From an uncultured Lentisphaerales bacterium (GTDB lineage Bacteria > Verrucomicrobiota > Kiritimatiellia > RFP12 > JAAYLN01), in assembly GCA_964592855.1 (NCBI GenBank), contig CAZQKI010000003.1:1273-56243 (forward strand): 54,971 bases of DNA, written 5' to 3'. Made by a program: the position numbers and the translations under genes. This document shows, one piece after another, positions 11,269 to 35,000 of the stretch (position 1 is the first letter of the stretch; every line of letters starts with the position of its first letter). Below the pieces are notes generated by a model. It had not been told where the DNA came from and did not search any database. It saw only the letters and a program-made list of their open reading frames with translations.

Positions 11269-12075
11269 ATGGTGATGAAGTATTCCTTTATGAGTTTTTC
11301 GACGCCGGAACTCGATTTGGCCGCCGTGCTGGATGTCGCGCGGCGCATCGGGTACGACGGCATCGAGCCGCGTCTGGACTCGGGCCATGCCCATGGCATC
11401 GAGGTCGGTCTGTCCCGTGAACGGTGCGACGCCGTCCGTGCGCAGGCCGCCGATGCCGGGATTGAGCTGGCCTGCCTGGCCACCTCCCTGAAGTTTGCCG
11501 ATCCCGCCGCGACGGAGACGGTGCTGGCGCAGACCCGCGAACGGATCGACCTGGCCGGCAACCTGGGCGTCAAGACCGTGCGTGTGTTCGGCGGCAAGAT
11601 CCCGGACGGCATTGAGCGTGAGCAGGCGATCGACCAGGTCGCCCGGTGCCTCGCCGCCGTGGCCGACCAGGCGGAGGCGCGCGGCGTGACGCTGTGCCTC
11701 GAGACGCATGACGACTGGTGTGACCCGCGTCACGTGGCCGCCGTCATGCTTCGGGTCGGCCAGCCGGGCATCGCCGTCAACTGGGATATCATGCATCCGG
11801 TCCGGACGGGCAAGGCGACCATTGGCGAATCCTTTGAAACGCTCCGGCCCTGGATCCGCCACGTCCATGTGCACGACGGGGTGGGTCGGGAACTCAAGAT
11901 GGTGCCGATCGGCACGGGCGAGATCGACCACCGGTCCGCGCTGGCCTGCCTGGCTGCGGCGGAATATGGCGGATTCATCAGCGGCGAATGGATCCGGTGG
12001 GAACCGTACGCGACGCACCTCCCGCGCGAGCTGGAAACGCTGAAGCGCTACGAACGGGCGGCGCGGGGGGGATAG
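11269..12075 (+). CDS. Sugar phosphate isomerase/epimerase (xylose isomerase-like TIM barrel)
   Basis: GYDGIE, LETHD, NWDIMH, HVHVHD, GTGEID, YGGFISGE metal-ligand motifs. SD GGAGG. Confidence 0.88.
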   Translation: MVMKYSFMSFSTPELDLAAVLDVARRIGYDGIEPRLDSGHAHGIEVGLSRERCDAVRAQAADAGIELACLATSLKFADPAATETVLAQTRERIDLAGNLGVKTVRVFGGKIPDGIEREQAIDQVARCLAAVADQAEARGVTLCLETHDDWCDPRHVAAVMLRVGQPGIAVNWDIMHPVRTGKATIGESFETLRPWIRHVHVHDGVGRELKMVPIGTGEIDHRSALACLAAAEYGGFISGEWIRWEPYATHLPRELETLKRYERAARGG

Positions 12076-12341
12076 GGGCGCGATTCAACTTTGTTGAATC
12101 CGCACCCGATTCAGGCGTTAGGAGTTAGGCGTTAGGAGTTAGAAGATTCCATAAAGGGTGTTCTTGGTGTCTTCATGATGAAGACTCAAAGCTTTTTGCG
12201 GCAAGCCTGATCCTGAGAAGACTCAAGCTCAAAAAGGGCACCATGTTTTCGCGGGTTGTTGCGCAGACAATGCCTAACTCCTAACGCCTAGCGCCTAACT
12301 CCTTTGGTGCGATTCAGTTTCAACTAAACTGAATCGCACCC
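12076..12341. repeat. Composite intergenic element: REP-like hairpins plus inverted heptamer arrays, flanked by a 9-bp direct repeat
   Basis: Hairpins at 12082-12100 and 12306-12340. (AGG[A/C]GTT)x4 at 12113-12140 and about 5 reverse-complement units at 12269-12303. GGGGGATAG at 12067-12075 and 12342-12350. Confidence 0.75.
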
Positions 12342-12367
12342 GGGGGATAGAGCAAAACATTTTGGGT

Positions 12368-12396
12368 TTGCTTTTTCGGGGGGGATTCACTACGAT
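12368..12396 (+). promoter_or_regulatory. Sigma70 promoter of tRNA-His
   Basis: TTGCTT-17 bp-TACGAT, 18 bp upstream of the tRNA. Confidence 0.6.
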
Positions 12397-12414
12397 TGTG
12401 GTGTTTTCCGACAT

Positions 12415-12491
12415 GGCGATAGTAGCTCAGTTGGTAGAGCGCCAGATTGTGGTTCTGGATGTCGCGGGTTCGAGCCCCGTCCATCGCCCCA
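12415..12491 (+). tRNA. tRNA-His (GTG)
   Basis: Cloverleaf with D-arm GCTCAGTTGGTAGAGC, anticodon arm CCAGA-TTGTGGT-TCTGG and T-loop GTTCGAG. Encoded G-1:C73 and CCA. Confidence 0.97.
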
Positions 12492-12496
12492 TTTTC

Positions 12497-12532
12497 AAGA
12501 CCGGTGGGTGAAGACCCGCCGGTCTTTTTTTT
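12497..12532 (+). terminator. Rho-independent terminator after tRNA-His
   Basis: AAGACCGGTGGGT-GAAG-ACCCGCCGGTCTT stem-loop followed by a T run. Confidence 0.85.
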
Positions 12533-12807
12533 ACGGCGGTGCGCCTGGACCGCAAAAAGCCTCTGGTTTCCATGCGGTTCTGTCATTTGCGGTTCATTTT
12601 TGCTCGTTTATTGCTTGAATCAGCGAAGCCAAACAGTTGTCAAAGGACGGCTGTTCCGGTAAAATACCGCCGACCGTCGACGTTCAGTGCGAACTGCCGC
12701 TGTTGTTTAAACATTACGGCAAGACGGAAATGGAATTGAGAGGGGTTTGCTGCGGCTTCGACAACCCCTCCACCGACTGGAGTCAGCAGACGAGAGAAGG
12801 TCTTTTT

Positions 12808-13806
12808 ATGTCAAAGAGTGTTGTGATTCGTTCATTGGGTGCCTGTCTGCCCAACCGGCGCGTTTCGAATGACGAGTTGGCGCAGCAGATGAACGTGGAT
12901 ACCTCGGATGAGTGGATTCGTTCCCATACGGGGATCGGGTGGCGTCATATCATCGACGACGGTCAGACCAATGCCGACTTGGGGATGGTTGCTGCGCGCG
13001 AGGCCCTGACGCGGGCCGGGGTTGAAGCAGCCGACATTGACCTGATCATCCTTTCGACGACCACGCCCGATTACATCGGCTGCCCGTCGACGGCCTGTCT
13101 GGTCCAGGATAAGATCGGCGCGATCAATGCCATGGCCTTTGACATTACCGCGGCCTGTTCAGGCTTCGTGTACGGGGTGACGGTTGCCAAGAGCATGCTG
13201 CTGACCGGACTTGCCCGGCGCGCCCTGGTCGTCAGTTCGGAAGCGCTGACCCGGGTGACGGACTGGTCGGACCGCAACACCTGCGTCCTGTTCGGCGATG
13301 GCGCCGGCGTGGCGCTGTTGGAAGTCTCCGACGCCGAAAATCAGGGCATTCTGAATACGCGCCTGCGTGCGGACGGCAGCGGATGGGAATACATTGTGAC
13401 GCGGGACGGGGGCTGTGCCAACCCCTATCAACGTGGCAAGATGGCCCAGCGGAATCCGCCCGTGATCGAAATGAAGGGCAAGAAGGTCTATGCCTTCGCC
13501 ATCAAGGCGATTCCCGAGATTGTGCAGGGACTGGTCGCGGATGCCGGGATCACCCTGGAAGACGTCAAGTGGATTGTTCCGCATCAGGCCAACGGACGGA
13601 TCATTCAGGCGGCTGCGAGCCAGATGCAGATTCCGGAGTCCCGGTTCTTCGTGAATCTCGAACAGCGCGCCAACACGTCGAGCGCGTCAATTCCGATTGC
13701 CCTTTATGATTTGGAGGCGCAGGGAGGACTGCAGCGCGGCGATCTCATCGCCATCGTGGGGTTTGGCGGAGGTTTGACATCTGCCGGCGCGTTGATTCGC
13801 TGGTAG
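12808..13806 (+). CDS. fabH: 3-oxoacyl-ACP synthase III
   Basis: DTSDEWIRSHTGI, DITAACSGF (Cys), LFGDGAG, VPHQAN (His), ANTSSAS (Asn), GFGGGLT. Confidence 0.95.
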   Translation: MSKSVVIRSLGACLPNRRVSNDELAQQMNVDTSDEWIRSHTGIGWRHIIDDGQTNADLGMVAAREALTRAGVEAADIDLIILSTTTPDYIGCPSTACLVQDKIGAINAMAFDITAACSGFVYGVTVAKSMLLTGLARRALVVSSEALTRVTDWSDRNTCVLFGDGAGVALLEVSDAENQGILNTRLRADGSGWEYIVTRDGGCANPYQRGKMAQRNPPVIEMKGKKVYAFAIKAIPEIVQGLVADAGITLEDVKWIVPHQANGRIIQAAASQMQIPESRFFVNLEQRANTSSASIPIALYDLEAQGGLQRGDLIAIVGFGGGLTSAGALIRW

Positions 13807-13853
13807 AGCGTGTGAGCAAACTGAAACGTCCATGCCGATAACAAGGAACTAAT

Positions 13854-15104
13854 ATGCAGCGTAGAGTGGTGATCACAGGACTGGGCACGATAAACCCATT
13901 GGGCAATGATGTGGCATCCTTTTGGGAGGGTATACAGCAGGGGCGCAGCGGCGTCGGCCCCATCACCCGCTTTGATCCGGCTGCCCTGGAAGTCAAGATC
14001 GCGGCGGAGGTCAAGGGATTTGTCCCCGACCAGTGGATGGATGCCAAGGCAGCCCGCAAGATGGCGCTTTTTTCGCAGTATGCCGTGGCCGCCACGGCGC
14101 AGGCGCTGCAGGATGCCGGCTTGAACCAGGAGACCCTCGAACCGCTCCGCACGGGCATTGTCATCGGCAATGGCATCGGCGGATATGAAATCATCGAAGA
14201 GTCGATGGGCAAGTATTTTGCACAGGGTCCGCGCCGCATTCTCCCCTTCACGGTGCCGCAGATCATCTCGAACGAGGCGGCCGGCAATGTGGCCATGGCC
14301 TTTGGCATCAAGGGTTTTGCGCTGACCAGCGTGACCGCTTGCGCGTCGGGTACGGATGCGTTGGGCGCGGCGCTTGACCTGGTGCGCCACGGGCGCTGCG
14401 ATGTCTGTGTTTCCGGAGGGACGGAATCCGCGATCACGGGGTTCGGCATAGCCGGGTTCCAGGTCATCCGCGCGCTCTCCACCAAGTACAACGCGACCCC
14501 TGCCAAGGCCAGCCGTCCGTTCGACCGGGACCGGGATGGATTCATCATGGGCGAGGGGGCCGGCATTCTCATTCTCGAATCGCTGGATCATGCGCTGGCC
14601 CGCGGGGCCCGGATCTATGCCGAACTGGCGGGGTATGGCGTCACCTGCGACGCCTACCACCTGACGGCCCCCGATCCCGAGGGCGCGGGCGGGGCGCGGG
14701 CCATCAAGCTGGCCTTGGAAGATGCCGGCATCCGGCCGGACGAGGTGCAATACTACAACGCCCACGGCACCTCCACGCCGATCAACGACCCGCTGGAGAC
14801 CAAGATGATCAAGCTGGCCTTCGGCGACCATGCCAGGGCCATGAAGATTTCAAGCACCAAAAGCATGACGGGGCATCTGATTGCCGCGGCAGGTGCGGTC
14901 GAGGCACTGGCCTGCGTCCTGGCGATTCAAAATGGATTCTACCCACCGACGATCAACTTGGAAAATCAGGATGTCGAAGGCGGTTGCGATCTCGACTATG
15001 TGCCGAACCATGGGGTTCGCGGCGACATTGAGGTTGCCGTCTCCGGTTCGCTTGGCTTTGGCGGACATAATGCCGTAATTGTCATGAGGAAATACCGAAC
15101 ATGA
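13854..15104 (+). CDS. fabF: 3-oxoacyl-ACP synthase II
   Basis: RRVVITGLG, TACASG, SRPFDRDRDGFIMGEGAG, NAHGTST, KSMTGHL, GFGGHN. Confidence 0.95.
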   Translation: MQRRVVITGLGTINPLGNDVASFWEGIQQGRSGVGPITRFDPAALEVKIAAEVKGFVPDQWMDAKAARKMALFSQYAVAATAQALQDAGLNQETLEPLRTGIVIGNGIGGYEIIEESMGKYFAQGPRRILPFTVPQIISNEAAGNVAMAFGIKGFALTSVTACASGTDALGAALDLVRHGRCDVCVSGGTESAITGFGIAGFQVIRALSTKYNATPAKASRPFDRDRDGFIMGEGAGILILESLDHALARGARIYAELAGYGVTCDAYHLTAPDPEGAGGARAIKLALEDAGIRPDEVQYYNAHGTSTPINDPLETKMIKLAFGDHARAMKISSTKSMTGHLIAAAGAVEALACVLAIQNGFYPPTINLENQDVEGGCDLDYVPNHGVRGDIEVAVSGSLGFGGHNAVIVMRKYRT

Positions 15105-15532
15105 GTGCCGACATCACAAAACTGCTGCCCCACCGCAAACCCTTTCTCTTCCTCGACGATGTCGCGACGCGCGAGGACGGCGTGATTACCGGTTTGCACC
15201 GGTATGACGATAATGAATTTTTCTTTTCGGGACATTTCCCCGGATATCCCGTGGTTCCCGGCGTCATTCTGGTCGAGTCGATGGCGCAATGCGGAGGTGC
15301 CGCATTGGTGCAGGATGGGGCCATTCCCAGCAAATTCCATTTCTTCCTCGCGACGGTGAGGGACGTCAAATTCAGGCGGAAGGTCACACCCGGCGAAACT
15401 GTGCGTTTTGAAATTCGCACGATGCGCGTCACGAAGAAGATGTTTCGCCAGCGGGGACTGTGCTATGTTGGCGATGAGCTCACGGCAGAGGCGGAGTGGA
15501 TGTGCATCATCACACCCCAGGGGGCCGATTAG
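15101..15532 (+). CDS. fabZ: 3-hydroxyacyl-ACP dehydratase
   Basis: LLPHRKPFLFLD, FFSGHFPGYPVVPGVILVESMAQ, VKFRRKVTPG. ATGA overlap with fabF. Confidence 0.92.
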   Translation: MSADITKLLPHRKPFLFLDDVATREDGVITGLHRYDDNEFFFSGHFPGYPVVPGVILVESMAQCGGAALVQDGAIPSKFHFFLATVRDVKFRRKVTPGETVRFEIRTMRVTKKMFRQRGLCYVGDELTAEAEWMCIITPQGAD

Positions 15533-15601
15533 CCTTCTGGACGCAACGGATCATGTTGGATTATTTCAGTTCGATGTACCATTGACTGCGAAGGTATCGA
15601 T

Positions 15602-16828
15602 GTGAGCGTGTTCACCTTGAAACAAAGCCTGGGTTACCCTGCGCTGTCCCTTTTGGCGATGGCCTGCTTGCTGGCATGGCCGTTGTCGGGTCAGACGCAG
15701 CAACCGCCGGAGATGGTGGAGATGGCGCGTGTCTTCCGCGTGCATGCGCGGGATCTGAGCTCGCGGTACAACGAAACCATCAAGGCCCTGCCAGCGCAAT
15801 ACGCGAACGATATCAAGACGTTGCATGATCGGTATCAGCAGAATGGCGATCTCGATGGCGTTCTGGCAACGGCACGGGAACAGAAACGCTATCAGGAGGC
15901 GATGGCCGCGGAGCGTGATCCCTTCGAGTTGACACCCGAGATGCCGCCCGAGGCCATCGTCGCCAAACCGCAGGAGCTCCGCCAGTTGCAGGAACAGTAT
16001 GTCAGTCGGTTCAAGGATGCGGCGACGGTGCGCACGCGCGACATCAAGGAACTGGCGGGCAAATATGTCAAGAGCCTCCAGAAGGTGCAAAGCGAGCTGA
16101 CCCGGGCGGGACGCATCGACGAGGCGGTCGTCATCAAGGCGGAGTCCGAGTGCCTGCAGCAAGGAATGGAGGATGGAAGCATGATGCAATTGGTCGAGAA
16201 AATGGCGACGGAACTGCCGAAGACCGCCTCCGGTTCGTCCGTGGACGCCACGGCCGAGGTTGCGAAGCCCGGGGAGGTTCCCGTGTACGGGGTCGTTCCC
16301 AATTGGGCGAAGTGGAAATTTGTGAGTTCCAACCGTTTTTCCCGTGAGCGGACGCAGTATGACCATCCGGATGTGCCGGACGAACTGAAGGTGATGTACA
16401 GCGAGAAGACCGGGCGCGGGAACTTCTCGGGACGTTGTCTCGTCAATTCCGTGCAGATCGGGGAGATGATGTGCCGCTGGTTTGGCAAAGCGCTTGTTTG
16501 GCGGGTGGATGATGTCAGCACGTTGACGACGACCTTCGTGCTCACTTCCAGGCATATTTCGGCGGGTGAGGAGCACGGTCCAGCCGTGCAGTTGGCCGTG
16601 TTGTCCAATGGACAGCCGCTTCGGAAGATCAATGTCAACCTGCAGGAGACAGAAACCACGCTTCGCCTGGTCAAGGACACCAACTCGAACCGCTGTGCGC
16701 TCATGTGGCCGCGGGGGAGCCTGACGGAGACGTTCGAACTGCCGGAGGGCGGTGCGATCAGCGTGCTTCTCGGTGTCACCGTCCGCAATCCCGGCGAAAT
16801 CTGCGACACCTCGTTTATCATGCAGTAG
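15602..16828 (+). CDS. Secreted hypothetical protein: helical N-terminal half with a duplicated motif, beta-rich C-terminal half
   Basis: 408-aa ORF, GTG start, signal peptide. Two Y..xxxL/V......G.[LI]D.[VA].....E repeats. Confidence 0.7.
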   Translation: MSVFTLKQSLGYPALSLLAMACLLAWPLSGQTQQPPEMVEMARVFRVHARDLSSRYNETIKALPAQYANDIKTLHDRYQQNGDLDGVLATAREQKRYQEAMAAERDPFELTPEMPPEAIVAKPQELRQLQEQYVSRFKDAATVRTRDIKELAGKYVKSLQKVQSELTRAGRIDEAVVIKAESECLQQGMEDGSMMQLVEKMATELPKTASGSSVDATAEVAKPGEVPVYGVVPNWAKWKFVSSNRFSRERTQYDHPDVPDELKVMYSEKTGRGNFSGRCLVNSVQIGEMMCRWFGKALVWRVDDVSTLTTTFVLTSRHISAGEEHGPAVQLAVLSNGQPLRKINVNLQETETTLRLVKDTNSNRCALMWPRGSLTETFELPEGGAISVLLGVTVRNPGEICDTSFIMQ

Positions 16829-16869
16829 CGGACGCCGGTTGCTTGCCGCGACAAGGAAGGTGCATACGC

Positions 16870-17730
16870 ATGATCAGCGATACAGTTCAGACCGCGCTGC
16901 TGGCCTATCAGCGTGATGAAATCACGGAACATCACATTTATCTGCGTCTGGCCGGGCTCCAGAAAGATGCGCATAACCGCGATGTCCTCACGCGCATCGC
17001 CGCTGACGAACTGCGGCATGCCGAGACCTGGCGGCTCTACACCGGACAGGCGGTGGCCCCCAACTGGCACAAGGTGTATCGCTGCGTGTGGCTGTGCAAG
17101 ATCGGCGGTTTCACGTTCGGCGCCAAGCTGATGGAGCGCGGCGAAGACCGCGCGCAGGCGAACTACGACGCGCTGCCGCCGCAGATCGTGCAGGCCGTCG
17201 CCATCCGCCAGGACGAAGCCGCCCACGAGCAGAGCCTGCTCAACATGCTCGACGAGGAGCGGATGCGCTATGTCGGCTCGATCGTGCTTGGCCTCAACGA
17301 TGCGCTGGTGGAATTGACGGGCGCCCTGGCCGGCCTGACGCTGGCGTTGCAGGACACGCGCAAGATCGCCATGACCGGGTGCATCACCGGCATCGCGGCA
17401 TCCTTCTCCATGGCTGCCTCGGAATATCTCTCGACCAAGACCGAGGGCAGCAGACTCCACCCGCTCAAGGCGTCCCTCTACACGGGCATGACCTACGTCT
17501 CCACGGTGTTGCTCCTGATTCTCCCCTATCTCCTGCTGGCCAACTACTTCGTGGCGTTGGGTTGCACCCTCGCCATCGCCGTGGGGATCATGGCCGTGTT
17601 CAACTACTATATCTCCGTTGCACAGGACGTTCCCTTTGGACGGCGCTTTTCGGAGATGGCCGGATTGAGCCTGAGCGTTGCCGCCTTGAGCTTTGTCGTG
17701 GGCTATCTGCTGCGCGGCATGGGTGGCTGA
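16870..17730 (+). CDS. VIT1/CCC1-family transporter with N-terminal rubrerythrin/ferritin-like domain (MbfA-like)
   Basis: E..E...Y..LA...DELRHAETW and DEAAHE diiron-type motifs, then VLGLNDALVE and SMAASEYLS of VIT1/CCC1. SD GGAAGG. Confidence 0.88.
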   Translation: MISDTVQTALLAYQRDEITEHHIYLRLAGLQKDAHNRDVLTRIAADELRHAETWRLYTGQAVAPNWHKVYRCVWLCKIGGFTFGAKLMERGEDRAQANYDALPPQIVQAVAIRQDEAAHEQSLLNMLDEERMRYVGSIVLGLNDALVELTGALAGLTLALQDTRKIAMTGCITGIAASFSMAASEYLSTKTEGSRLHPLKASLYTGMTYVSTVLLLILPYLLLANYFVALGCTLAIAVGIMAVFNYYISVAQDVPFGRRFSEMAGLSLSVAALSFVVGYLLRGMGG

Positions 17731-17812
17731 GGTCCGGAGTCCTGCGCCGCGACGTGCGATGCATACAAGGATGCCCTCTGTCCCGAAGCCTCCACGGATG
17801 GGAAAGGTCTTC

Positions 17813-18871
17813 ATGCGGTACAACATCTACTACCGAAAGTGCGATGGCGCCCCGGCCAATCTCTTCAAGGAGAAATACGCCGGGAGCGGCATCGAGGCAC
17901 AGGTGTCTGCCGCCTGCCGTGCTTTCGCCGGCACCGATGCCGAGACGATCACGCCGCTCAACAGCGATGGCGATCACTATGCCTACCGCGTTAAACTGGC
18001 CGGCGAGGAGATGATTTTTCGCGCCGATACCTCCACCGATAACGATGACTACATGCTTGCGGAGGCGGCGGCGATGCGGCTGGCGCGCGGCGCCGGCGTC
18101 CCCGTGCCCACAGTCTTTACCACCGACGTTTCCCGGGTGTGTGTCCCGTGCCGCTGGCAGCTTCTCGAATGGGTTCCCGGCAAGGCGCTGGTGGACTATG
18201 ATCGCGACAAGACGCTGAACCGTGTCGCGATTGCCCGCCAGATCGGGACGCTATTCCGCCGGCTCCACTCCGTGCCGCTGGAAGGATTCGGCTTCTTCAA
18301 CACAAAGCTGCTTTCGGAAACGGGCCGCGTGCGCGGCCTTTACGCGAGCTACCGGGAATACTTCTGCTGCCGTCTGGACGACCATTGCCGCTATTTACTC
18401 GAACACGCCCTGGCCGATTGCGGCACGCTGAAGCGCGTCGCGGCCGTTTTCGAGGGGGCGCAGGCGCTCCTCGACCTGAAGGCGGGGGTTCTGGTTCACC
18501 GTGATCCTGCCTTCTGGAACCTGGTGGGTGAATCGGATCGCATTTCCGCCTTGATCGACTGGGATGATGTCGTTTCCGGCGATGCCGCGGACGACCTCGG
18601 GTTGATGTGGTGCTTTCACGATGCCCGCTTCATGCGGGACGTGCTGGCCGCCTATGGGAACGAAGAACCGGGCTTCGAGAGGCGAATATCCCTCCACTAT
18701 CTGCGGAACATGCTTTGGAAGACCGTCATCCGCCATCGGATGGGTTACTTCGAAAAAGGGCGGGATTTCTTTCTGAATGTGGCGCAAGGCAACGCCGTCA
18801 CATTGAAGGACGTAACCCTGAACAAGCTCAGCGAAGCATTGGAAAGGTGCGAATCGTCATGCAGTACTTGA
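17813..18871 (+). CDS. Aminoglycoside phosphotransferase/choline kinase-like protein
   Basis: EAAAM..AR..GVPVP, LLEWVPG, LRRLH-type segment (FRRLHS), Brenner-like VHRDPAFWN and LIDWDD. Confidence 0.8.
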   Translation: MRYNIYYRKCDGAPANLFKEKYAGSGIEAQVSAACRAFAGTDAETITPLNSDGDHYAYRVKLAGEEMIFRADTSTDNDDYMLAEAAAMRLARGAGVPVPTVFTTDVSRVCVPCRWQLLEWVPGKALVDYDRDKTLNRVAIARQIGTLFRRLHSVPLEGFGFFNTKLLSETGRVRGLYASYREYFCCRLDDHCRYLLEHALADCGTLKRVAAVFEGAQALLDLKAGVLVHRDPAFWNLVGESDRISALIDWDDVVSGDAADDLGLMWCFHDARFMRDVLAAYGNEEPGFERRISLHYLRNMLWKTVIRHRMGYFEKGRDFFLNVAQGNAVTLKDVTLNKLSEALERCESSCST

Positions 18872-19617
18872 AAATGGATCGGGATTTTTTGGCGGGACTC
18901 TGGCTGTCATCCGGCTCCGTTACCGCCGCCGAAATCGCCGGGGCTGCCGGTTTCGACTGGCTCCTGATCGACGGGGAGCACGGACTCGCGAGCGAGTCGG
19001 GCATCCTCGAAATTCTGCGGGCGCTGGCCGCCTCGACCGCATGCCCGGTCGTTCGGATACCGAGCCACGATTCGCCGCTGCTTGGGCGCGTCCTCGATTT
19101 CGGGGCGGGCGGCATCATGGCGCCGGGCGTTGAATCGGCCGACGAGGCCAGGCAGCTTGTGCAACGGATGCGCTATCCGCCCCGGGGAAAACGCGGGCTG
19201 ACGGCCTCCAGCCGTGCCGCGGGACATGGAAGTCAGTTCAAGACCTACTTTTCAGAGGCGAATGAGAAACTGGCCCTGATCGCCCAGATCGAAACCGCCG
19301 ACGGTGTGGCCCATGCCGATGAGATCGCCGCGGTTGACGGTGTTTCCGCCCTCTTCGTGGGACATTCCGATCTGAGTCTGAATCTCGGCGTTTTCGGCGA
19401 TTGGGAGCATGATGCCCTGAAGGCGGCCGAATCCCGGGTGATTGCGGCTTGCAGAAAATCGGGAAAGCTTCCGGGCATGCTGCTGAAAAGCGGTCAGAGC
19501 CCCGCTCCGTACCGCGAAAAGGGATTCCGGCTGATCGCGCTCGGAACCGATAGCGGGCTCCTCAGAAGCGGTTGCGCGAGCCTGCTCGCCGGCTGGCGCC
19601 AGGCGCCGGCAACTTAG
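18859..19617 (+). CDS. HpcH/HpaI-family class II pyruvate aldolase
   Basis: GFDWLLIDGEHG, PVVRIP, RYPPRGKRG, QIET, LFVGHSDL. Overlaps the kinase gene by 13 bp. Confidence 0.9.
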   Translation: MQYLKMDRDFLAGLWLSSGSVTAAEIAGAAGFDWLLIDGEHGLASESGILEILRALAASTACPVVRIPSHDSPLLGRVLDFGAGGIMAPGVESADEARQLVQRMRYPPRGKRGLTASSRAAGHGSQFKTYFSEANEKLALIAQIETADGVAHADEIAAVDGVSALFVGHSDLSLNLGVFGDWEHDALKAAESRVIAACRKSGKLPGMLLKSGQSPAPYREKGFRLIALGTDSGLLRSGCASLLAGWRQAPAT

Positions 19618-19628
19618 GGAGTTGCCGC

Positions 19629-19705
19629 TTCGTCCTCGTCGTCGAAAACCCTCGGTGGTTTCGAGTACGATTACGAGGACCGCTTCGCTGAGGACGAGGA
19701 CGAAA
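19629..19705. repeat. Inverted hexamer-array element (CGAGGA/CGAGTA-type units)
   Basis: TTCGTCCTCGTCGTCGAAA...TTTCGAGTACGATTACGAGGAC...GAGGACGAGGACGAA; the arms are complementary. Confidence 0.65.
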
Positions 19706-19826
19706 CTCAACTGGGCGCTTCAGGGTGATTTCTTCTTTGTCGCGAGCTTTGTCGACTGCATCGTCGCCATTGCATCTCCCAGCAAACAAGATGCTGTGGA
19801 CCCGGCGGTCCTCCGCCGTAGCGAAT

Positions 19827-20060
19827 AGGAGGCCGGAGCGACCGCTCCACTCGCCACCGCCGGGGACGGCGGGGTCCAGTTCGTCCCCTGTCGCGCCCGT
19901 TTGATTGGACGTACAGGACTCGCGCTTGCTCGTCAACCGTTCTCGTCGCCCGCTCTCGTTGACCGATTCTTCCGCCTTCCGCTTTTCGATGGACGATAGC
20001 GGACGACGCGAGCGGATCACGATTTCGTCCCGTCGTTCCCTTTTCTCTCTTCTCGCCAAC
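19827..20060. repeat. Direct repeat copy 1 (about 234 bp) flanking the TA cassette
   Basis: Aligns with 20979-21059 plus 21271-21423. Contains the CCGCCGGGGACGGCGG palindrome and an internal inverted array. Ends in CGCCAAC. Confidence 0.85.
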
Positions 20061-20123
20061 GGTCACGGCGAGCGTTTGACCGACCGTCGCGGGCGGGCAA
20101 TACGCTCCGCCGTGTTGTTCGGC
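20054..20123 (-). mobile_element. Integron attC site (downstream of brnA)
   Basis: Minus strand reads GCCGAAC...GTTGGCG, 70 bp. Hairpin CACGGCG/CGCCGTG, AGCGT/ACGCT, TTG/CAA with two extrahelical bases on the R''-L'' arm. Confidence 0.8.
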
Positions 20124-20413
20124 AATGCTTCCGCCCCTGACGTTCCGCGCTCTGCTTTGATGCCCCACGCAAGATAGAGTTTGGCAAGACTCTGGTAGGG
20201 CACATCACGTTTGTTCGCGAGGACTTTCAGATCGTCCAGCATACCCGCCGGCAGGCGGATTGAGATGGATCGCAGGGTCGGTCGCAGGTTAGGAAACGAC
20301 ACCCGTTTAGCGGCCTTGACATTGAAGTAGTCCAGCGGGGAGTGGTTAGCCCAGAACTCCCTCTCTTCGTCTTCTGTCTGGAACACTGGTCTAGTCTTCG
20401 TTTGCGTGCTCAT
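20063..20413 (-). CDS. brnA: BrnA/CopG-family antitoxin
   Basis: FQTEDEEREFW and SISIRLP...LK.LA.KRDVPYQSL ribbon-helix-helix. Overlaps the toxin gene; the stop codon lies inside the attC. Confidence 0.85.
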   Translation of the reverse strand: MSTQTKTRPVFQTEDEEREFWANHSPLDYFNVKAAKRVSFPNLRPTLRSISIRLPAGMLDDLKVLANKRDVPYQSLAKLYLAWGIKAERGTSGAEALPNNTAERIARPRRSVKRSP

Positions 20414-20699
20414 AGAATTCGCGCTCCCTTCGGTTCATATCTCGTGCGGAAATGATTCGAATTAAACTGCCTCTCGGCGTATAGACGACAACAAGCCTCC
20501 GCCCCAAGTCGGTCTGTCCGAAGGCAGCAAACCTATCCTCGGCTGCAGAATGCTTCGGATCATCCAGGATCACGAGCGGTTCATTGAAGAAGACCTGTTC
20601 GCACTCAGAAGCATGAACCCCATGCTTCAGGTTCTTCTCCTTGTTGCCGGCATCCCAGTCAAATCCGCTGGCATCCAAGTATTCGCCTGTCATGGACAT
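20391..20699 (-). CDS. brnT: BrnT-family ribonuclease toxin
   Basis: GFDWDAGNKEKNLKHGV...EQVFFN...HSAAEDRF..FG...LVVVYT.R...IRIISARDM. Start may be 20693. Confidence 0.92.
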   Translation of the reverse strand: MSMTGEYLDASGFDWDAGNKEKNLKHGVHASECEQVFFNEPLVILDDPKHSAAEDRFAAFGQTDLGRRLVVVYTPRGSLIRIISARDMNRREREFYEHANED

Positions 20700-20728
20700 A
20701 CAGTATACTTATGAGATATACGAGTCAA
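20700..20728 (-). promoter_or_regulatory. Cassette-borne brnTA promoter with overlapping palindromic operator
   Basis: Minus strand TTGACT-cgtatatctcataag-TATACTGT directly before the ATG; GTATA-N9-TATAC inverted repeat. Confidence 0.6.
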
Positions 20729-20755
20729 CCTCCATCTTCTGACTTCTTTCTGGGT

Positions 20756-20818
20756 GCCGAACGTTGCGCCTAACGGACGGCGAGCTTGCGAGCCGTACCT
20801 TTCAGGCGCTGGTTGTGT
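20756..20818 (-). mobile_element. Integron attC site (upstream of brnT)
   Basis: Minus strand reads ACACAAC...GTTCGGC, 63 bp. Hairpin GCGCCT/AGGCGC and ACGGC/GCCGT with extrahelical bases. Confidence 0.8.
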
Positions 20819-20870
20819 GCCGGGTATGCCCGGTCGCTTGTCGTCACGCTCCGCGAGACGATTGCAAAGA

Positions 20871-20973
20871 AACGGGATTGACTTCGAAATTCTGCGGTTC
20901 AGTATTCGTCGGGTTATGCGCCCGCGCAGCGGGAAATCTGCGGTTCGATTAGGTTGCGGGCGGAGCCCGCATT
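20871..20973 (-). repeat. REP-like palindrome plus left arm of the AACCGCAG element
   Basis: Reverse complement matches 31886-31964, apart from a roughly 24-bp insertion. Confidence 0.8.
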
Positions 20974-20978
20974 CGAGC

Positions 20979-21423
20979 AGGACGCCGGAGCGACCTTTCC
21001 ATTCGCCACCGCCGGGGACGGCGGGGGCCAGTTCGTCCCATGTCGCGCCCGTCTGATTGCAGTCTTGCCCTCCAGTGGCTGTTGATTGTCCCACTGTCCG
21101 CCGTAGTCGTCGACCCTGGGAGAGGAAGAATCGGCGGACGACTACGGCGACGACTACGGCTTACGATTTCCTTCGGTCGTTCCGCTTGTCAATCCTACTC
21201 GCACGCTCCTGTCCGCCAATCCCGGCGGAGCCGTGAACCGCCATGGGCTCGCACCGCGAGGATCGGAAGGGACGCACAGGACTCGCGCTCGCACGTCAAC
21301 CGTTCTCGTCGCCCGCTCTCGTTGACCGAGACTTCCGCCTTCCGCTTTTCGGTGGACGATAGCGGACGACGAGAGCGGATCACGATTTTGCCCCATCGTT
21401 CCATCTTCTCTCTTCTCGCCAAC
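20979..21423. repeat. Direct repeat copy 2 with an approximately 211-bp internal insert
   Basis: Matches 19827-20060. The insert at 21060-21270 holds ACGACTACGG repeats. It abuts an arm of the AACCGCAG element (21422-21462, matching 31997-32028). Confidence 0.85.
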
Positions 21424-21514
21424 TTCGACATTCGGACCTCATGATTCGAAAATCTGCGGTTCTTCTGCCGAGTTCCCGTGGCGTCTCGCACATGATCCAA
21501 AACCCGACAGGCTG

Positions 21515-22450
21515 CTACACGCTGGGGAAGAGGCGGCGCGCCTGGACGATGTCCTGCTGAACCTGGACCATGAGGGCTTGCGCATCGGGAAACTTGATTT
21601 CGTCGCGGAGGCGGGCCAGGAAGGCGACGTCCAGGGTCGCGCCGTAGAGGTCGCCCTCGAAGTCGAGCAGGTGGATCTCGAGCACGGGCGCATCGGGGCG
21701 CGCGTCGGCAAAGGTCGGGCGCCAGCCGAGCCCCGCGACGCCATCCACCGGGCGGTCGCCGATCCACGTCCGGACGGCATAGACGCCGATTTTCGGCAGC
21801 ACTTCCGCCGCCGGATGCAGGTTAGCCGTGGCCATGCCGATGGTGCGGCCGACCCCGCGGCCGCGGACGACCGTCTCGCGGATGGCATAGGGACGTCCGA
21901 GCATCTGCGTGGCCTCCTCGATGTCGCCCGCCTGGATGGCTTTGCGGATGCGGGTGCTGGAGATGGGCTTGCCCTTGTATTGCTCGGCGGTGGCGATGAC
22001 CACGTCGAAACCGTATTGCCGCCCCAGTACCGTGAGCAGCCCCGGGTTACCTTGTCCCTTGGCGCCAAACGTCCAGTTGTCGCCACAGCGGATCTCGACG
22101 ATCGCCTTTCGGTCGCCGCAGAGCAGGGCGATGAAGTCGGCCGGCGAAAGACCGGCGAGTTCATGCGTGAAGGGGAGCATGAGACAGCCGTCGAGGCCTG
22201 TGCTCGCGAGGAGCTCGAGCCGGCCGGGGATCGGCGTCAGCAGCGGGGGCTGGCGGCCGGGGGCGAGAATGGCGCAGGGATGCTGGTCGAAGGTGAGCGC
22301 CCACGCCTGCCCGCCGATCTCGCGGGCACGAGCAACGGCACCCTCGAGGACGCGGCGATGTCCGAGGTGGACGCCATCGAAGAAACCGGTGGCGAGGACC
22401 AGGGGGCCGGGTATCTGACGGAATGATTCGGGAAGAACGAGCGTATGCAC
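21515..22450 (-). CDS. ribF: Bifunctional riboflavin kinase/FAD synthetase
   Basis: GFFDGVHLGH, ISSTRIR, LGRPY, GRTIG..TANL, GVYA, GWRPTF, LEIHLLDF, RDEIKF. Confidence 0.95.
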   Translation of the reverse strand: MHTLVLPESFRQIPGPLVLATGFFDGVHLGHRRVLEGAVARAREIGGQAWALTFDQHPCAILAPGRQPPLLTPIPGRLELLASTGLDGCLMLPFTHELAGLSPADFIALLCGDRKAIVEIRCGDNWTFGAKGQGNPGLLTVLGRQYGFDVVIATAEQYKGKPISSTRIRKAIQAGDIEEATQMLGRPYAIRETVVRGRGVGRTIGMATANLHPAAEVLPKIGVYAVRTWIGDRPVDGVAGLGWRPTFADARPDAPVLEIHLLDFEGDLYGATLDVAFLARLRDEIKFPDAQALMVQVQQDIVQARRLFPSV

Positions 22451-32086: not shown

Positions 32087-35000
32087 CTAACTGCCATCCT
32101 CCGCCTTGGGCCCTTTGCGGTAGAACCGGCCGAGGAGGGTGTAGATGACCGGAATGACGAGCAGGGTCAGGAAGGTGCTGGAGATCATGCCGCCGACCGC
32201 GACGACGCCCAGTGGACGGCGGCTTTCGGCCGAACCGCCGAAGCCGATTGCGATCGGCAGGATGCCGGCGATGGTTGAAAGGCTGGTCATCAGGATCGGG
32301 CGGAAGCGCAGGCGCGCGGCCTCCGTCACGGCGTCGCGGGCGTTCATGCCGCGCTCGCGGAGCTGGTTGGCGAACTCGACGATCAGGATCGAGTTCTTGC
32401 AGACCATCGCAACCAGGAGGATCAGGCCGACCTGGCTGAAGACGTTCATGTTCATCGATGGGATGCGCGGGATCAGGCGGCTGAGGATCCCCGCGATCGG
32501 CGGTGCATCGGGCGCGTAGTTGGCCCAGCCGAACATGCCCTGGCCGACTTGGTTCGCCCAGCTCAGGGCATAGAGCAGGCCGAACGCTCCGACGAAGGCC
32601 AGCGGCAGGGCCATCATCACGACGAACGGGTGCAGGAAGCTCTCGAACTGCGCCCCGAGCACCATGTAGACGACGATCACGGACATGAGCATGAACAGGT
32701 AGAGGTCGTACGACGACTCACGGAGGTTTCGGGCTTCCCCCTTCCAGTCGTGCCGCGTGTCGGCGGGCAGCACTTCGCGCAGCAGGGCTTCGGTCCGCTC
32801 GACGGCCGTGCCGAGCGTGACGCCGACCGGCGTGCCTTCGATCGTCGCGGAGCGTTGGCGGCGGAAGCGTTCGATGACGTTGGGGCCCGCGTGGATCGCG
32901 GTGGTGACGACGTTGGCGAGCGGCACCAGCGCGCCGGAGGAGGTGCGGACCGCGACGCGGTCGAGGTCCGCCGGATCCCGGCGATCGGAACCGTCCAGTT
33001 GCAGAATCACGTCGTACTGCTGCCCCTCGCGTGTGATCTTCGACGCGGCGTAGGGGGAGAACAGCAACTGCAGGGTGCGTGAGATGTCGGCCACGCTGAT
33101 GCCAAGTGCCCCGGCGCGTTCGCGGTCGATCTCGACGCGCAGCTCCGGCTTGTTGATCTCGAAGCTGCTGCGCAGGTTTGCGAACAGGCCAGTCTGGCGG
33201 AGGTGGCCGATCACCGCCTGCACGGTGCTGTTCAGCTCATCCAGCCCCGGGGCGCTCAGCACCAGCTGGAAGGGCTGGCCGAAGTCCACGTCCACCGCCT
33301 TGGACAGGATCGGGAACGCCAGGGAGCCTTCCGACTCGGTGATGAAGCGGACGCCCAGGCCGGCGGGCCCGCCCACCATGTCGCGGACATTGGGGCGCCC
33401 GTCTTCGGTCAGCCGGACGAACATGAAACCCAGGGACGGATTGCCGGGACCGGCGAACGGCAGGGCGACCGCCGAGAAGAACGAGTCGACGCCCGGCGTC
33501 TCCGCGGCGATGCCCTCGATCTGCCGCATCATCCGGTCGGTGTACTCCGGCGTGGCGCCCTCGGGTGAAATCGACAGCACCATGAGTCGTCCCTTGTCCT
33601 CTTCGGGCAGGAACTCCCGGTCGAGGTTGCGGAAAAAATACCCCGACAGGAGCAGCGACAGGAAGGCGAGCGCGAGCATCGCGGCGCGGTGACGAAGCGC
33701 CCAGCCGAGCCAGCGGGCATAGCGCTCGTTGAGGCGGTCCAGGCGCCGCTCGAAGAAGTTGTAGAGGCGGCCATGCTGCGCGGACACCGGCCGCAGGATG
33801 CGGGCGCTGACCATCGGCGCCAACGTCAGAGCCACCAACGTCGAAACGCTCACAGACACCGACATGGCGACGGCAAACTCGAGCAACAGCCGGCCGGTCA
33901 ATCCGCCGACGAAGACCAGCGGCAGGAAGATCGCGACCAGCGTCACGGTCGTGACGATGACGGCGAACGACACTTCGCGCATCGCCAGCAGGGCGGCCTG
34001 GAACGGCGGCTGGCCCTCCTCGATGTGGCGGTAGGTGTTCTCCAGCACGATGATCGAGTCGTCCACGACGATGCCGATGGCCAGCACCAGCGCCAGCAGC
34101 GTGAAGATGTTGATCGAGTGTCCGAGCGCATGCATGACGCCGAACGTCGCGATCAACGATACCGGAACCGCCAGCGTCGGGATGAGGGTCGACCGCAGGT
34201 TCCGCAGAAAGACGAAGATCGAGAGTACGACGAGCACGAAGGCCTGGCCCAGCGTGACCCAGACATCGTGCACCGCCTTCGAGATGTAGACGGATTCATC
34301 GTAGGGCAGCTTGACTTCGATGCCCTCCGGCAGCGTCGGTGTGAGTTCCTCGATGACCTTGCGGACGTTGCGCGCCACGTCCACCGTGTTGGCGCGCGAT
34401 TGGCGGACCACGCCCAGCCCCACGGCTGGCTGGCGGTTGAAGCGCGCCACGGCCCGCTCATCCTCGACCCCCGCCTCGGCGCGGCCGACATCCCCGAGCC
34501 GCACGGTCTTCGTGCCGTCTTCGCGCAGGACCAGGTTGTTGAACGGTTCCGCCGAGGCGAACTGCCCGCGGGTGAGGATGCTGATCTCGCGGTCGGCGCC
34601 CTCGATGCGGCCGCCGGGGAGTTCGAGGTTCTGGGTGCGGATGACGTTCTCCACATCGGTCACGGTGAGCCCGTGCGCGGACAGGCGGATCGGGTCGAGC
34701 CAGATGCGCACCGCGTCGTCCTTGGCGCCGCCCACGATGACCGAACTGACGCCGTCGACGGACTGCACGCGGTCCTTGACCAGATCCTCCACGAAACGCG
34801 TGAGCTGCTTCACCGTGTAGCGCGAGCTGTAGAACGCGATCCACATGATGGGCTGCGCGCCGGAGTCCTGCTTGGCAATGACCGGCTCCTCGATGTCGTC
34901 CGGCAGTTCCCCGCGGACGCGCGCGACGCGGTCGCGCACGTCCTGCGCGGCCACCTCGATGTTCCTTCCGGTGACGAACTCGACGGCGATGCTCGAGACT

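Follow-up and report, generated by a model that had tools for sequence, protein, structure and literature searches.

Positions 20054 to 20818 of the window (the whole stretch of DNA analysed here, 54,971 bases lying within the 67,143-bp contig C3) very probably form, on the minus strand, an attC-site cluster without an integron-integrase (CALIN), made up of two attC sites and one complete gene cassette that carries a brnT-brnA toxin-antitoxin (TA) pair. The open reading frame (ORF) list of the window gives two overlapping ORFs on this strand, and a first-pass annotation made from the letters alone had read the segment as a circularisable BrnT/BrnA cassette with two attC sites, a CALIN; this proposal is now supported by a covariance model of attC sites, by homology to 15 related loci that breaks at the G|TT points, by covariation within the cassette's hairpin and by a copy of the cassette in another metagenomic context. 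PMC4889954 describes CALINs as two or more attC sites that share a strand and are separated by less than 4 kb, and it gives proposed origins for them. The two sites described here (20054-20123 and 20756-20818) likewise lie on the same strand, 695 bp apart, with no integrase gene beside them on the 67-kb contig. A complete integron, with adjacent intI and attI, is not what is found, intI lying on another contig, and the presence of two sites sets the locus apart from a single isolated attC lacking an integron-integrase (SALIN).

The cassette itself is placed at 20060-20761 (minus strand, 702 bp), from T20761, which follows the upstream G|TT, to G20060, which precedes the downstream one. Its own attC, attC_B, occupies 20054-20123 (minus strand, 70 nt), with R'' GCCGAAC at 20123-20117 and R' GTTGGCG at 20060-20054, the TTGGCG of the latter belonging to a neighbouring dispersed repeat. 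The upstream site, attC_A, occupies 20756-20818 (minus strand, 63 nt), with an R''-like ACACAAC at 20818-20812 and R' GTTCGGC at 20762-20756, the TTCGGC of which (20761-20756) is already part of the brnTA cassette. In situ, the boxes thus read GCCGAAC...GTTGGCG in attC_B, where the second would become GTTCGGC after circularisation, and ACACAAC...GTTCGGC in attC_A. The core boxes of attC sites follow the consensus RYYYAAC for R'' and GTTRRRY for R', and unpaired extra bases on the R''-L'' arm set the strand that is recombined. Each core box of attC_A and attC_B fits this consensus at 5-6 of 7 positions, both sites have the inverted core boxes with AAC and GTT ends, and on the minus (coding) strand both have two extra bases left unpaired in the 5' arm, the R''-L'' arm. 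The exact complementarity between the TTCGGC start of the cassette and its R'' GCCGAAC, already pointed out in the first-pass annotation, is present (G|TTCGGC at 20762|20761, GCCGAAC at 20123-20117), and the unit therefore has what is expected of a gene cassette: ORFs followed by one attC, G|TT at both ends and a start complementary to R''. The predicted crossover falls between the G and the TT of R'.

A covariance model, R1, was built from 16 homologues of attC_B and found attC_B alone in the window; because of this narrowness a general model, R2, was built as a surrogate for the attC model of IntegronFinder. With its filters off, R1 was used to harvest other same-strand hairpins in the related loci, and from these candidates 14 sites were taken for training (L061, L146, L147, L154, L222, two of L139, three of L148 and four of L070), both the window and the close families of its two hairpins being excluded. 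RNAalifold on the 14 training sites gave nine pairs, all with covariation; after addition of the AAC/GTT box and one further pair, 88.5% of the cells were paired and 10 of the 13 pairs changed on both sides. Over the whole window, on both strands and with filters off, model R2 returned two significant hits only, both on the minus strand: 20054-20123 (46.8 bits, E 1.1e-9) and 20756-20818 (39.5 bits, E 7.4e-8). The absence of hits with an attC covariance model had been named beforehand, together with a lack of recombination at the G/TT points, as what would speak against the proposal; the surrogate model hits both sites. It also places to the base the pair of attC-like hairpins (70 and 63 bp) that had been noted and bears out their common orientation, but the right one proves unexceptional by folding energy. 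The next best of the 38 window hits listed, at 34139-34205, reached 14.7 bits (E 0.12); it lies inside a 1073-aa ORF and was rejected as a third attC. The model further detects all 15 attC sites of the cassette homologues outside its training set, and in 21 related loci it gives 28 hits at E <=0.01, all on the brnT strand and in arrays of 2-4 sites. Four sites in G021, a genome of another family, share an attC_A-like loop but have different R' ends, and score 25.8-36.7 bits with model R2; it is by its architecture and by these relatives, not by energy, that attC_A is recognised.

Of the two hairpins, that of attC_B is the only one to stand out by folding energy. As DNA, 20054-20123 folds at -27.4 kcal/mol on the plus strand (z -4.8, with none of 200 shuffles as good) and at -22.8 kcal/mol on the minus strand (z -3.2). 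In the alignment of its 16 homologues, 89.6% of the cells at the 24 proposed pairs are paired; sliding the partner brings this share down to 25-36%. Seven of the 24 pairs change on both sides, and none of 500 shuffles reaches the covariation score. The same homologues also encode the BrnA tail, so that conservation alone would be no evidence for the hairpin; the compensatory changes are. The coding strand has no T-run after the hairpin, and a terminator scan reports a single hairpin within the left site. An Rfam scan of 19000-22000, with E up to 10, gave no relevant family.

The limits of the cassette are drawn most sharply by comparison. Searches with BrnT yielded 80 loci in species genomes and another 80 in metagenomes, with which the minus strand of the window was compared by BLASTN. 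In 15 loci, DNA homology spans brnT, brnA and the whole left hairpin and stops at window positions 20044-20070, the distal end falling at 20055-20059 in 12 of them; at the other side, homology starts at 20762-20766 in five loci. All 15 keep the hairpin, which is followed by GTT in 13 (GTC in L139, GAT in L061), and the sequence past the GTT is unrelated among them, the four bases after it varying by locus. Six loci (L139, L141, L146, L061, L060 and L059) have the cassette start GTTCGGC or GTTCGAC, preceded by unrelated sequence that ends in a hairpin. An attC directly upstream of the cassette was called by model R2 in L139, L146, L061, L147, L148 and L150 and by R1 in L141, and same-strand arrays of 2-4 attC sites are present in L059, L139, L148, L146, L061, L147 and L145. 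In G021, 58 nt with 98% identity extend from the same GTTCGGC to the contig end, the remainder of the cassette being absent from that assembly. To judge from these alignments, the homology breaks are those predicted by recombination at G|TT, and they fix the orientation, with the cassette running from 20761 down to 20060 and its genes and attC on the same strand. The parsing of the plus strand, in which the cassette would span 20118-20812 with inverted genes, was rejected; 20057-20117 is shared by the homologues whereas 20764-20812 is not, and only the minus strand gives model hits. In L199, one further brnT homologue and a full intI homologue are 1.2 kb apart, and no attC was found there with model R2.

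The stretch is contained, always as contigs, in 20 lake or freshwater metagenome runs from 11 studies, four of which (X3, X9, X15 and X19) were compared with window positions 19400-21700. Contigs of X3 and X9 bridge both cassette junctions as in the window. In X15, only positions 2019-2725 of a 4043-nt contig match, corresponding to 20058-20764 of the window with 11 differences, and in X19 the match of an 848-nt contig is confined to 20058-20735. A copy of the cassette with 11 differences and the same ends thus evidently occupies a different context in X15, and cassettes of this kind are found in several contexts, including arrays, as the multi-site loci and the X15 copy attest. A single X15 contig, joining 19644 to 21304, was not used; it has 30 letters on one side and touches a repeat.

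The first gene of the cassette, brnT (20391-20699, minus strand), encodes a 102-aa ribonuclease-type toxin of a type II TA pair and matches PF04365 (BrnT_toxin) above the cut-off over profile positions 1-77 of 77 (E 9.8e-25, 87.1 bits). The second, brnA (20063-20413, minus strand), encodes a 116-aa antitoxin of the CopG/ribbon-helix-helix type that matches PF12441 (CopG_antitoxin) above the cut-off (E 4.8e-24, 85.4 bits) and weakly matches the NCBIfam BrnA model NF047399 (33.3 bits, under the cut-off of 60). The two genes overlap by 23 nt, the toxin gene preceding the ribbon-helix-helix antitoxin gene, and by prediction BrnT would arrest growth and BrnA would neutralise it. Brucella abortus has a BrnT/BrnA TA system in which the toxin gene also precedes the antitoxin gene. 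The pair in the window resembles it in gene order, in its PF04365 toxin and in the fold family of its antitoxin, and differs from it in that the antitoxin falls in PF12441, below the BrnA cut-off, and has an Arg/Lys-rich tail encoded by the attC. The stop codon of brnA (TGA, 20065-20063) lies inside attC_B, as had been claimed from the letters, and so do the last 20 brnA codons. Positions 20063-20123 are hence both attC and coding sequence for the Arg/Lys-rich end of BrnA. The homologues retain the hairpin, through compensatory changes, as well as a similar BrnA tail, and their brnA stop codon always stands 2-3 bases ahead of the GTT. Upstream of brnT, a putative promoter/operator (20703-20728, minus strand) consists of TTGACT at 20728-20723 and an inverted repeat, GTATATC..AGTATAC, that closely precedes the start of brnT; the homologues have here a conserved TTGAC and a 7-bp inverted repeat, GTATATC-N5-GATATAC. 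Transcription may start from this region. The claim that the cassette has its own promoter thus gains from the conservation of these elements, but the promoter scan does not back it.

The intergenic region of 1.9 kb in which the cassette lies, bounded by the aldolase gene and ribF, contains dispersed repeats throughout and is single-copy only at about 20075-20845. Five short families were delimited, at 19785-19905, 19920-20061, 20845-20970, 21080-21190 and 21415-21470, with 161, 51, 66, 41 and 25 BLAST matches in the genome, respectively; they occur in both orientations, several are shared with genomes from other families of the same order and none has an Rfam match. On contig C2 (2656-3103), the first of them is arrayed in exact tandem copies of 112 bp. 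The second, here called repeat R2 (not to be confused with model R2), abuts the cassette at 19920-20061 on the plus strand, and its natural end, ...CGCCAACG, supplies the GTT where the array ends. Every copy of repeat R2 ends in ...cgccaacg, with or without a cassette, after which the copies diverge; the TTGGCG of the cassette's R' is, by this shared end, repeat sequence. The dispersed repeats R1 and R2 were themselves considered as attC sites and rejected, as they give no model hits, occur in both orientations and include an R1 copy downstream of intI. A direct repeat of about 240 bp, 90-92% identical, was also observed, 19822-20060 corresponding to 20974-21059 plus 21270-21423, with the second copy interrupted by about 210 bp. 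It flanks the cassette, attC_A and one further repeat, and could mediate their deletion by homologous recombination. In relatives of the same genus (L039-L049, L225-L229), ribF, a 274-aa ORF and a sigma-factor gene are conserved to the right of the locus, and neither window positions 12000-21500 nor the intergenic DNA were found within 3-5 kb downstream of the relatives' ribF. The cassette, judged against these relatives, is situated at a synteny breakpoint (about 19618-21514).

The host genome (5.16 Mb in 430 contigs, 93% complete) was searched for integron integrases with the TIGR02249 profile, as the first-pass annotation had suggested, and seven matches were obtained, on C299, C32, C81, C234, C308 and C284. 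No match lies on contig C3, and the window does lack intI as had been said; the description of the cassette as integrase-less holds for this contig but not for the genome, which has an intact integrase on C299 (369.7 bits, against a cut-off of 265) and an internally deleted one on C234. The contig C299 ends 357 bp upstream of intI, so that an array is not visible, and no attC was found by model R2 beside this gene in the 357 bp available. The copy on C234 retains only residues 1-58 and 373-430 of the C299 protein; at C234:3566-6179 (L232), beyond the deleted intI, the other strand carries a 376-aa ORF, then an attC (42.1 bits) and then a RelE/helix-turn-helix TA pair at which TTGACA comes after the GTT. 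With regard to the C299 enzyme, its ORF encodes 433 aa (L031 1486-2787, minus strand), of which residues 118-429 are matched by the integrase models and the first 117 by no Pfam family; this N-terminal part is kept in the deleted C234 copy (84% identity, residues 1-58) and is aligned from residue 22 in the 40%-identical homologue of L199. The last bases of C299 (L031 3131-3144) read ...TTTAACGTTG, with an AAC-GTT motif on the cassette side, and it is pure conjecture that the assembly break could mark an attI with variable cassettes behind it.

Model R2 gave at least six sites at E <=0.01 in the genome (150 of 3770 candidates scored), and a seventh was found in a local search; together these sites make up five loci, in the window (C3) and on C2, C99, C234 and C104. 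At C2:1131-1830 (L230), all on the minus strand, an attC (1774-1830) is followed by BrnT (Pfam, 79.1 bits), a BrnA-like gene (18.6 bits, below the cut-off of 26.1) and a second attC (1131-1187, 22.9 bits). This C2 unit adjoins tandem copies of the 112-bp repeat. At C99:4204-5132 (L231), the attC has on one side a 77-aa SHOCT-domain ORF and on the other a PemK/MazF toxin gene, which is preceded by a 76-aa partner, and at C104:4742-5111 (L233) it overlaps the end of a Phd/YefM-like antitoxin gene (Phd, 29.0 bits, below the cut-off of 29.8); no second attC was found at either of these two loci. All five attC loci found in the genome therefore adjoin TA genes. Among 41 genomes (this one and 40 relatives), seven have an integrase above the cut-off and 17 have model R2 hits at E <=0.001, with 37 such hits in G008, which indicates that integrons of this attC type are common in the group. 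In the same genus, a single attC (L234 2047-2111, that is G005:C8:26546-26610; 37.4 bits) was observed about 5 kb from ribF, after a permease gene, with no recognisable TA gene beside it.

It is proposed that an integron integrase provided in trans, possibly the intact enzyme encoded on C299, would fold the bottom strands of attC_A and attC_B and recombine them at the two G|TT points. The product would be a 702-nt circle whose R box is perfectly paired, and removal of 20060-20761 would restore the end of repeat R2 exactly (...CGCCAA|CG). The location of the distal junction in the terminal GTT of a dispersed repeat suggests that the array was brought here through recombination by an integrase, at or beside a genomic site other than an attC, and was not left by in-situ decay of an integron; the junction fits integrase recombination at a genomic GTT of the kind described for secondary and attG sites in PMC4889954 and 10.1101/2022.09.11.507474. 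Once in place, the pair may behave as an addiction module, with BrnA repressing the promoter and neutralising the BrnT ribonuclease, and cells that lose the cassette would be poisoned; this would explain the persistence of TA cassettes at scattered attC loci of the genome. We advance, as a tentative extension, the idea that TA cassettes of this lake lineage of the Planctomycetes-Verrucomicrobia-Chlamydiae (PVC) group could be selfish integron passengers that colonise ordinary chromosomal GTT sites, here a repeat end, by means of an integrase acting in trans and, because their loss kills, are the sole cassettes to last outside the integron. The link of all five attC loci to TA genes, the two attC-BrnTA-attC units and the X15 copy with its 11 differences speak for it, the last, from another lake sample, pointing to movement that still goes on in nature.

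Several observations weigh against reading the segment as a two-site CALIN. The right hairpin (20749-20818) folds no better than shuffled sequences (z -0.55 and -1.2, with 56 and 21 of 200 as good), and the bottom-strand extra bases of attC_B are C and T where G and T are usual in attC sites, the one nearest the R box being the C. The independence of model R2 is incomplete, its training sites having been harvested with R1, which derives from attC_B homologues; one of them (L148:1766-1829) belongs as attC to a divergent brnTA cassette, and five precede brnTA cassettes and share TTCGGC, which accounts for part of the attC_A score. Only dispersed repeats, and no recognisable ORF or cassette, stand before attC_A; no empty site was found in the relatives, where synteny ends at ribF; and a scan of 19900-21000 for consensus sigma-70 promoters called none. 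Among the metagenomic joints listed, none skips 20060-20761 and no circle junction occurs, a result that is uninformative on excision because contigs drop rare forms. The assembly is fragmented (430 contigs), and the distance from the cluster to intI is known only as more than about 21 kb.

The cassette nature would be unchanged, and its origin different, if a chromosomal rearrangement had detached the segment from the integron array of the genome itself. This is a rather unlikely origin, although the genome does hold an intact intI whose array would lie beyond the end of C299, 357 bp upstream, and a deleted intI with cassettes on C234, synteny with the same-genus relatives breaks exactly here, and rearrangement is among the origins given for CALINs in PMC4889954. 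The distal junction, however, coincides with the natural end of a repeat that excision would restore, as expected of site-specific insertion and not of a random break, and there are two attC sites only, with no further one in the 55-kb window. It has to be considered as well that a single brnTA cassette may have entered an attG-type GTT next to a pre-existing host hairpin repeat that merely resembles an attC. The unexceptional fold of attC_A, the lack of a cassette ORF ahead of it and the overlap of its outer part with a repeat family of G024 that has no hairpin are all compatible with this, and cassette insertion at GWT genomic sites is documented in 10.1101/2022.09.11.507474. Such a coincidence is nevertheless improbable in view of the 39.5 bits of attC_A with the attC model and the 25.8-36.7 bits of its G021 relatives, at one of which (L220, inspected by eye) ORFs end just before and start just after the site, as in a cassette array.

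Two explanations that dispense with integron biology at this site have still less to recommend them. Movement or loss of the TA pair as cargo of some other repeat-bounded mobile unit, through the direct repeats of about 240 bp, would agree with their 90-92% identity and with the otherwise unique or repeat-derived DNA between them; it is highly improbable, as the repeat families have 50-160 matches genome-wide in both orientations and the cassette travels without the repeats in other genomes and in X15 and X19. That the locus is an ordinary chromosomal BrnT/BrnA operon, with hairpins that are due to chance or terminator-like, can hardly be credited at all: TA operons are indeed common in intergenic regions, the right hairpin is weak and the terminator scan places a hairpin inside the left site, yet the homology to 15 loci ends at G|TT with unrelated flanks, 28 of 28 model hits in related loci are on the coding strand in arrays of 2-4, the hairpin pairs covary and no T-run follows on the coding strand. 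The two-attC CALIN with one complete brnT-brnA cassette remains the preferred reading.

Taken as a CALIN, the locus belongs to a well-known kind of element and leaves the current picture of integrons unchanged. TA cassettes and CALINs were already known, as the first-pass annotation had acknowledged, and two-cassette CALINs are the commonest class: 10.1101/2022.09.11.507474 counts only two cassettes in 1362 of 2961 CALINs and notes that these may arise by insertion. As in known CALINs, the cassette is unrelated to resistance genes, and an IntI is encoded elsewhere in the genome, a situation reported for about half of CALINs. The locus differs in that its sites were called by a surrogate model and not by IntegronFinder's own, in its apparently Kiritimatiellia-/Verrucomicrobiota-like lake bacterial host and in the distal junction within a dispersed repeat. 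Promoter-bearing TA cassettes have been described, and their stabilising effect by addiction proposed, in PMC13108822 for sedentary chromosomal integrons such as that of Vibrio cholerae. The cassette of the window resembles these in its type II TA pair, own promoter region and single 3' attC, and its suggested role would likewise be stabilisation through the killing of cells that lose it; it differs in lying in a two-site cluster far from any integrase instead of a large array, in its BrnT/BrnA family and in genes that are read in the same way as the attC top strand. With the SALIN and attG insertions of 10.1101/2022.09.11.507474 it shares the isolated position outside an integron and an outer junction at a genomic GTT that fits the GWT consensus, whereas its two attC sites exclude it from the SALINs and the insertion is deduced from the junction only. 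The junction in a dispersed repeat fits this recently described insertion of cassettes at non-att genomic sites, and the small CALINs of these genomes appear to represent TA cassettes that have moved out of the integron. With this locus the PVC catalogue gains a BrnT/BrnA cassette family with clear limits, together with its attC, and it is a case in which a reader of the sequence alone, in a phylum that has received little study, correctly spotted an integron cassette and the points of its crossover.

Regarding the surroundings of the cluster, the gene to the left of the pair encodes an HpcH/HpaI-type aldolase (18607-19617, plus strand) and the gene to the right is ribF (21515-22450, minus strand). 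The statement that the cassette is located between housekeeping genes is literally correct, but the site is the 1.9-kb repeat-filled intergenic region at the end of synteny. The assignment to a PVC-type genome, also made from the letters, receives weak support from the closest named BrnT loci, which come from Kiritimatiellia and Verrucomicrobiota metagenome-assembled genomes, and from the top RibF atlas cluster, which carries a Verrucomicrobiota label for two members. The lower GC content of the cassette relative to its flanks, noted at the outset, is borne out: 0.52-0.57 over 20100-20849, against 0.60-0.69 in the flanks and 0.641 in the genome.

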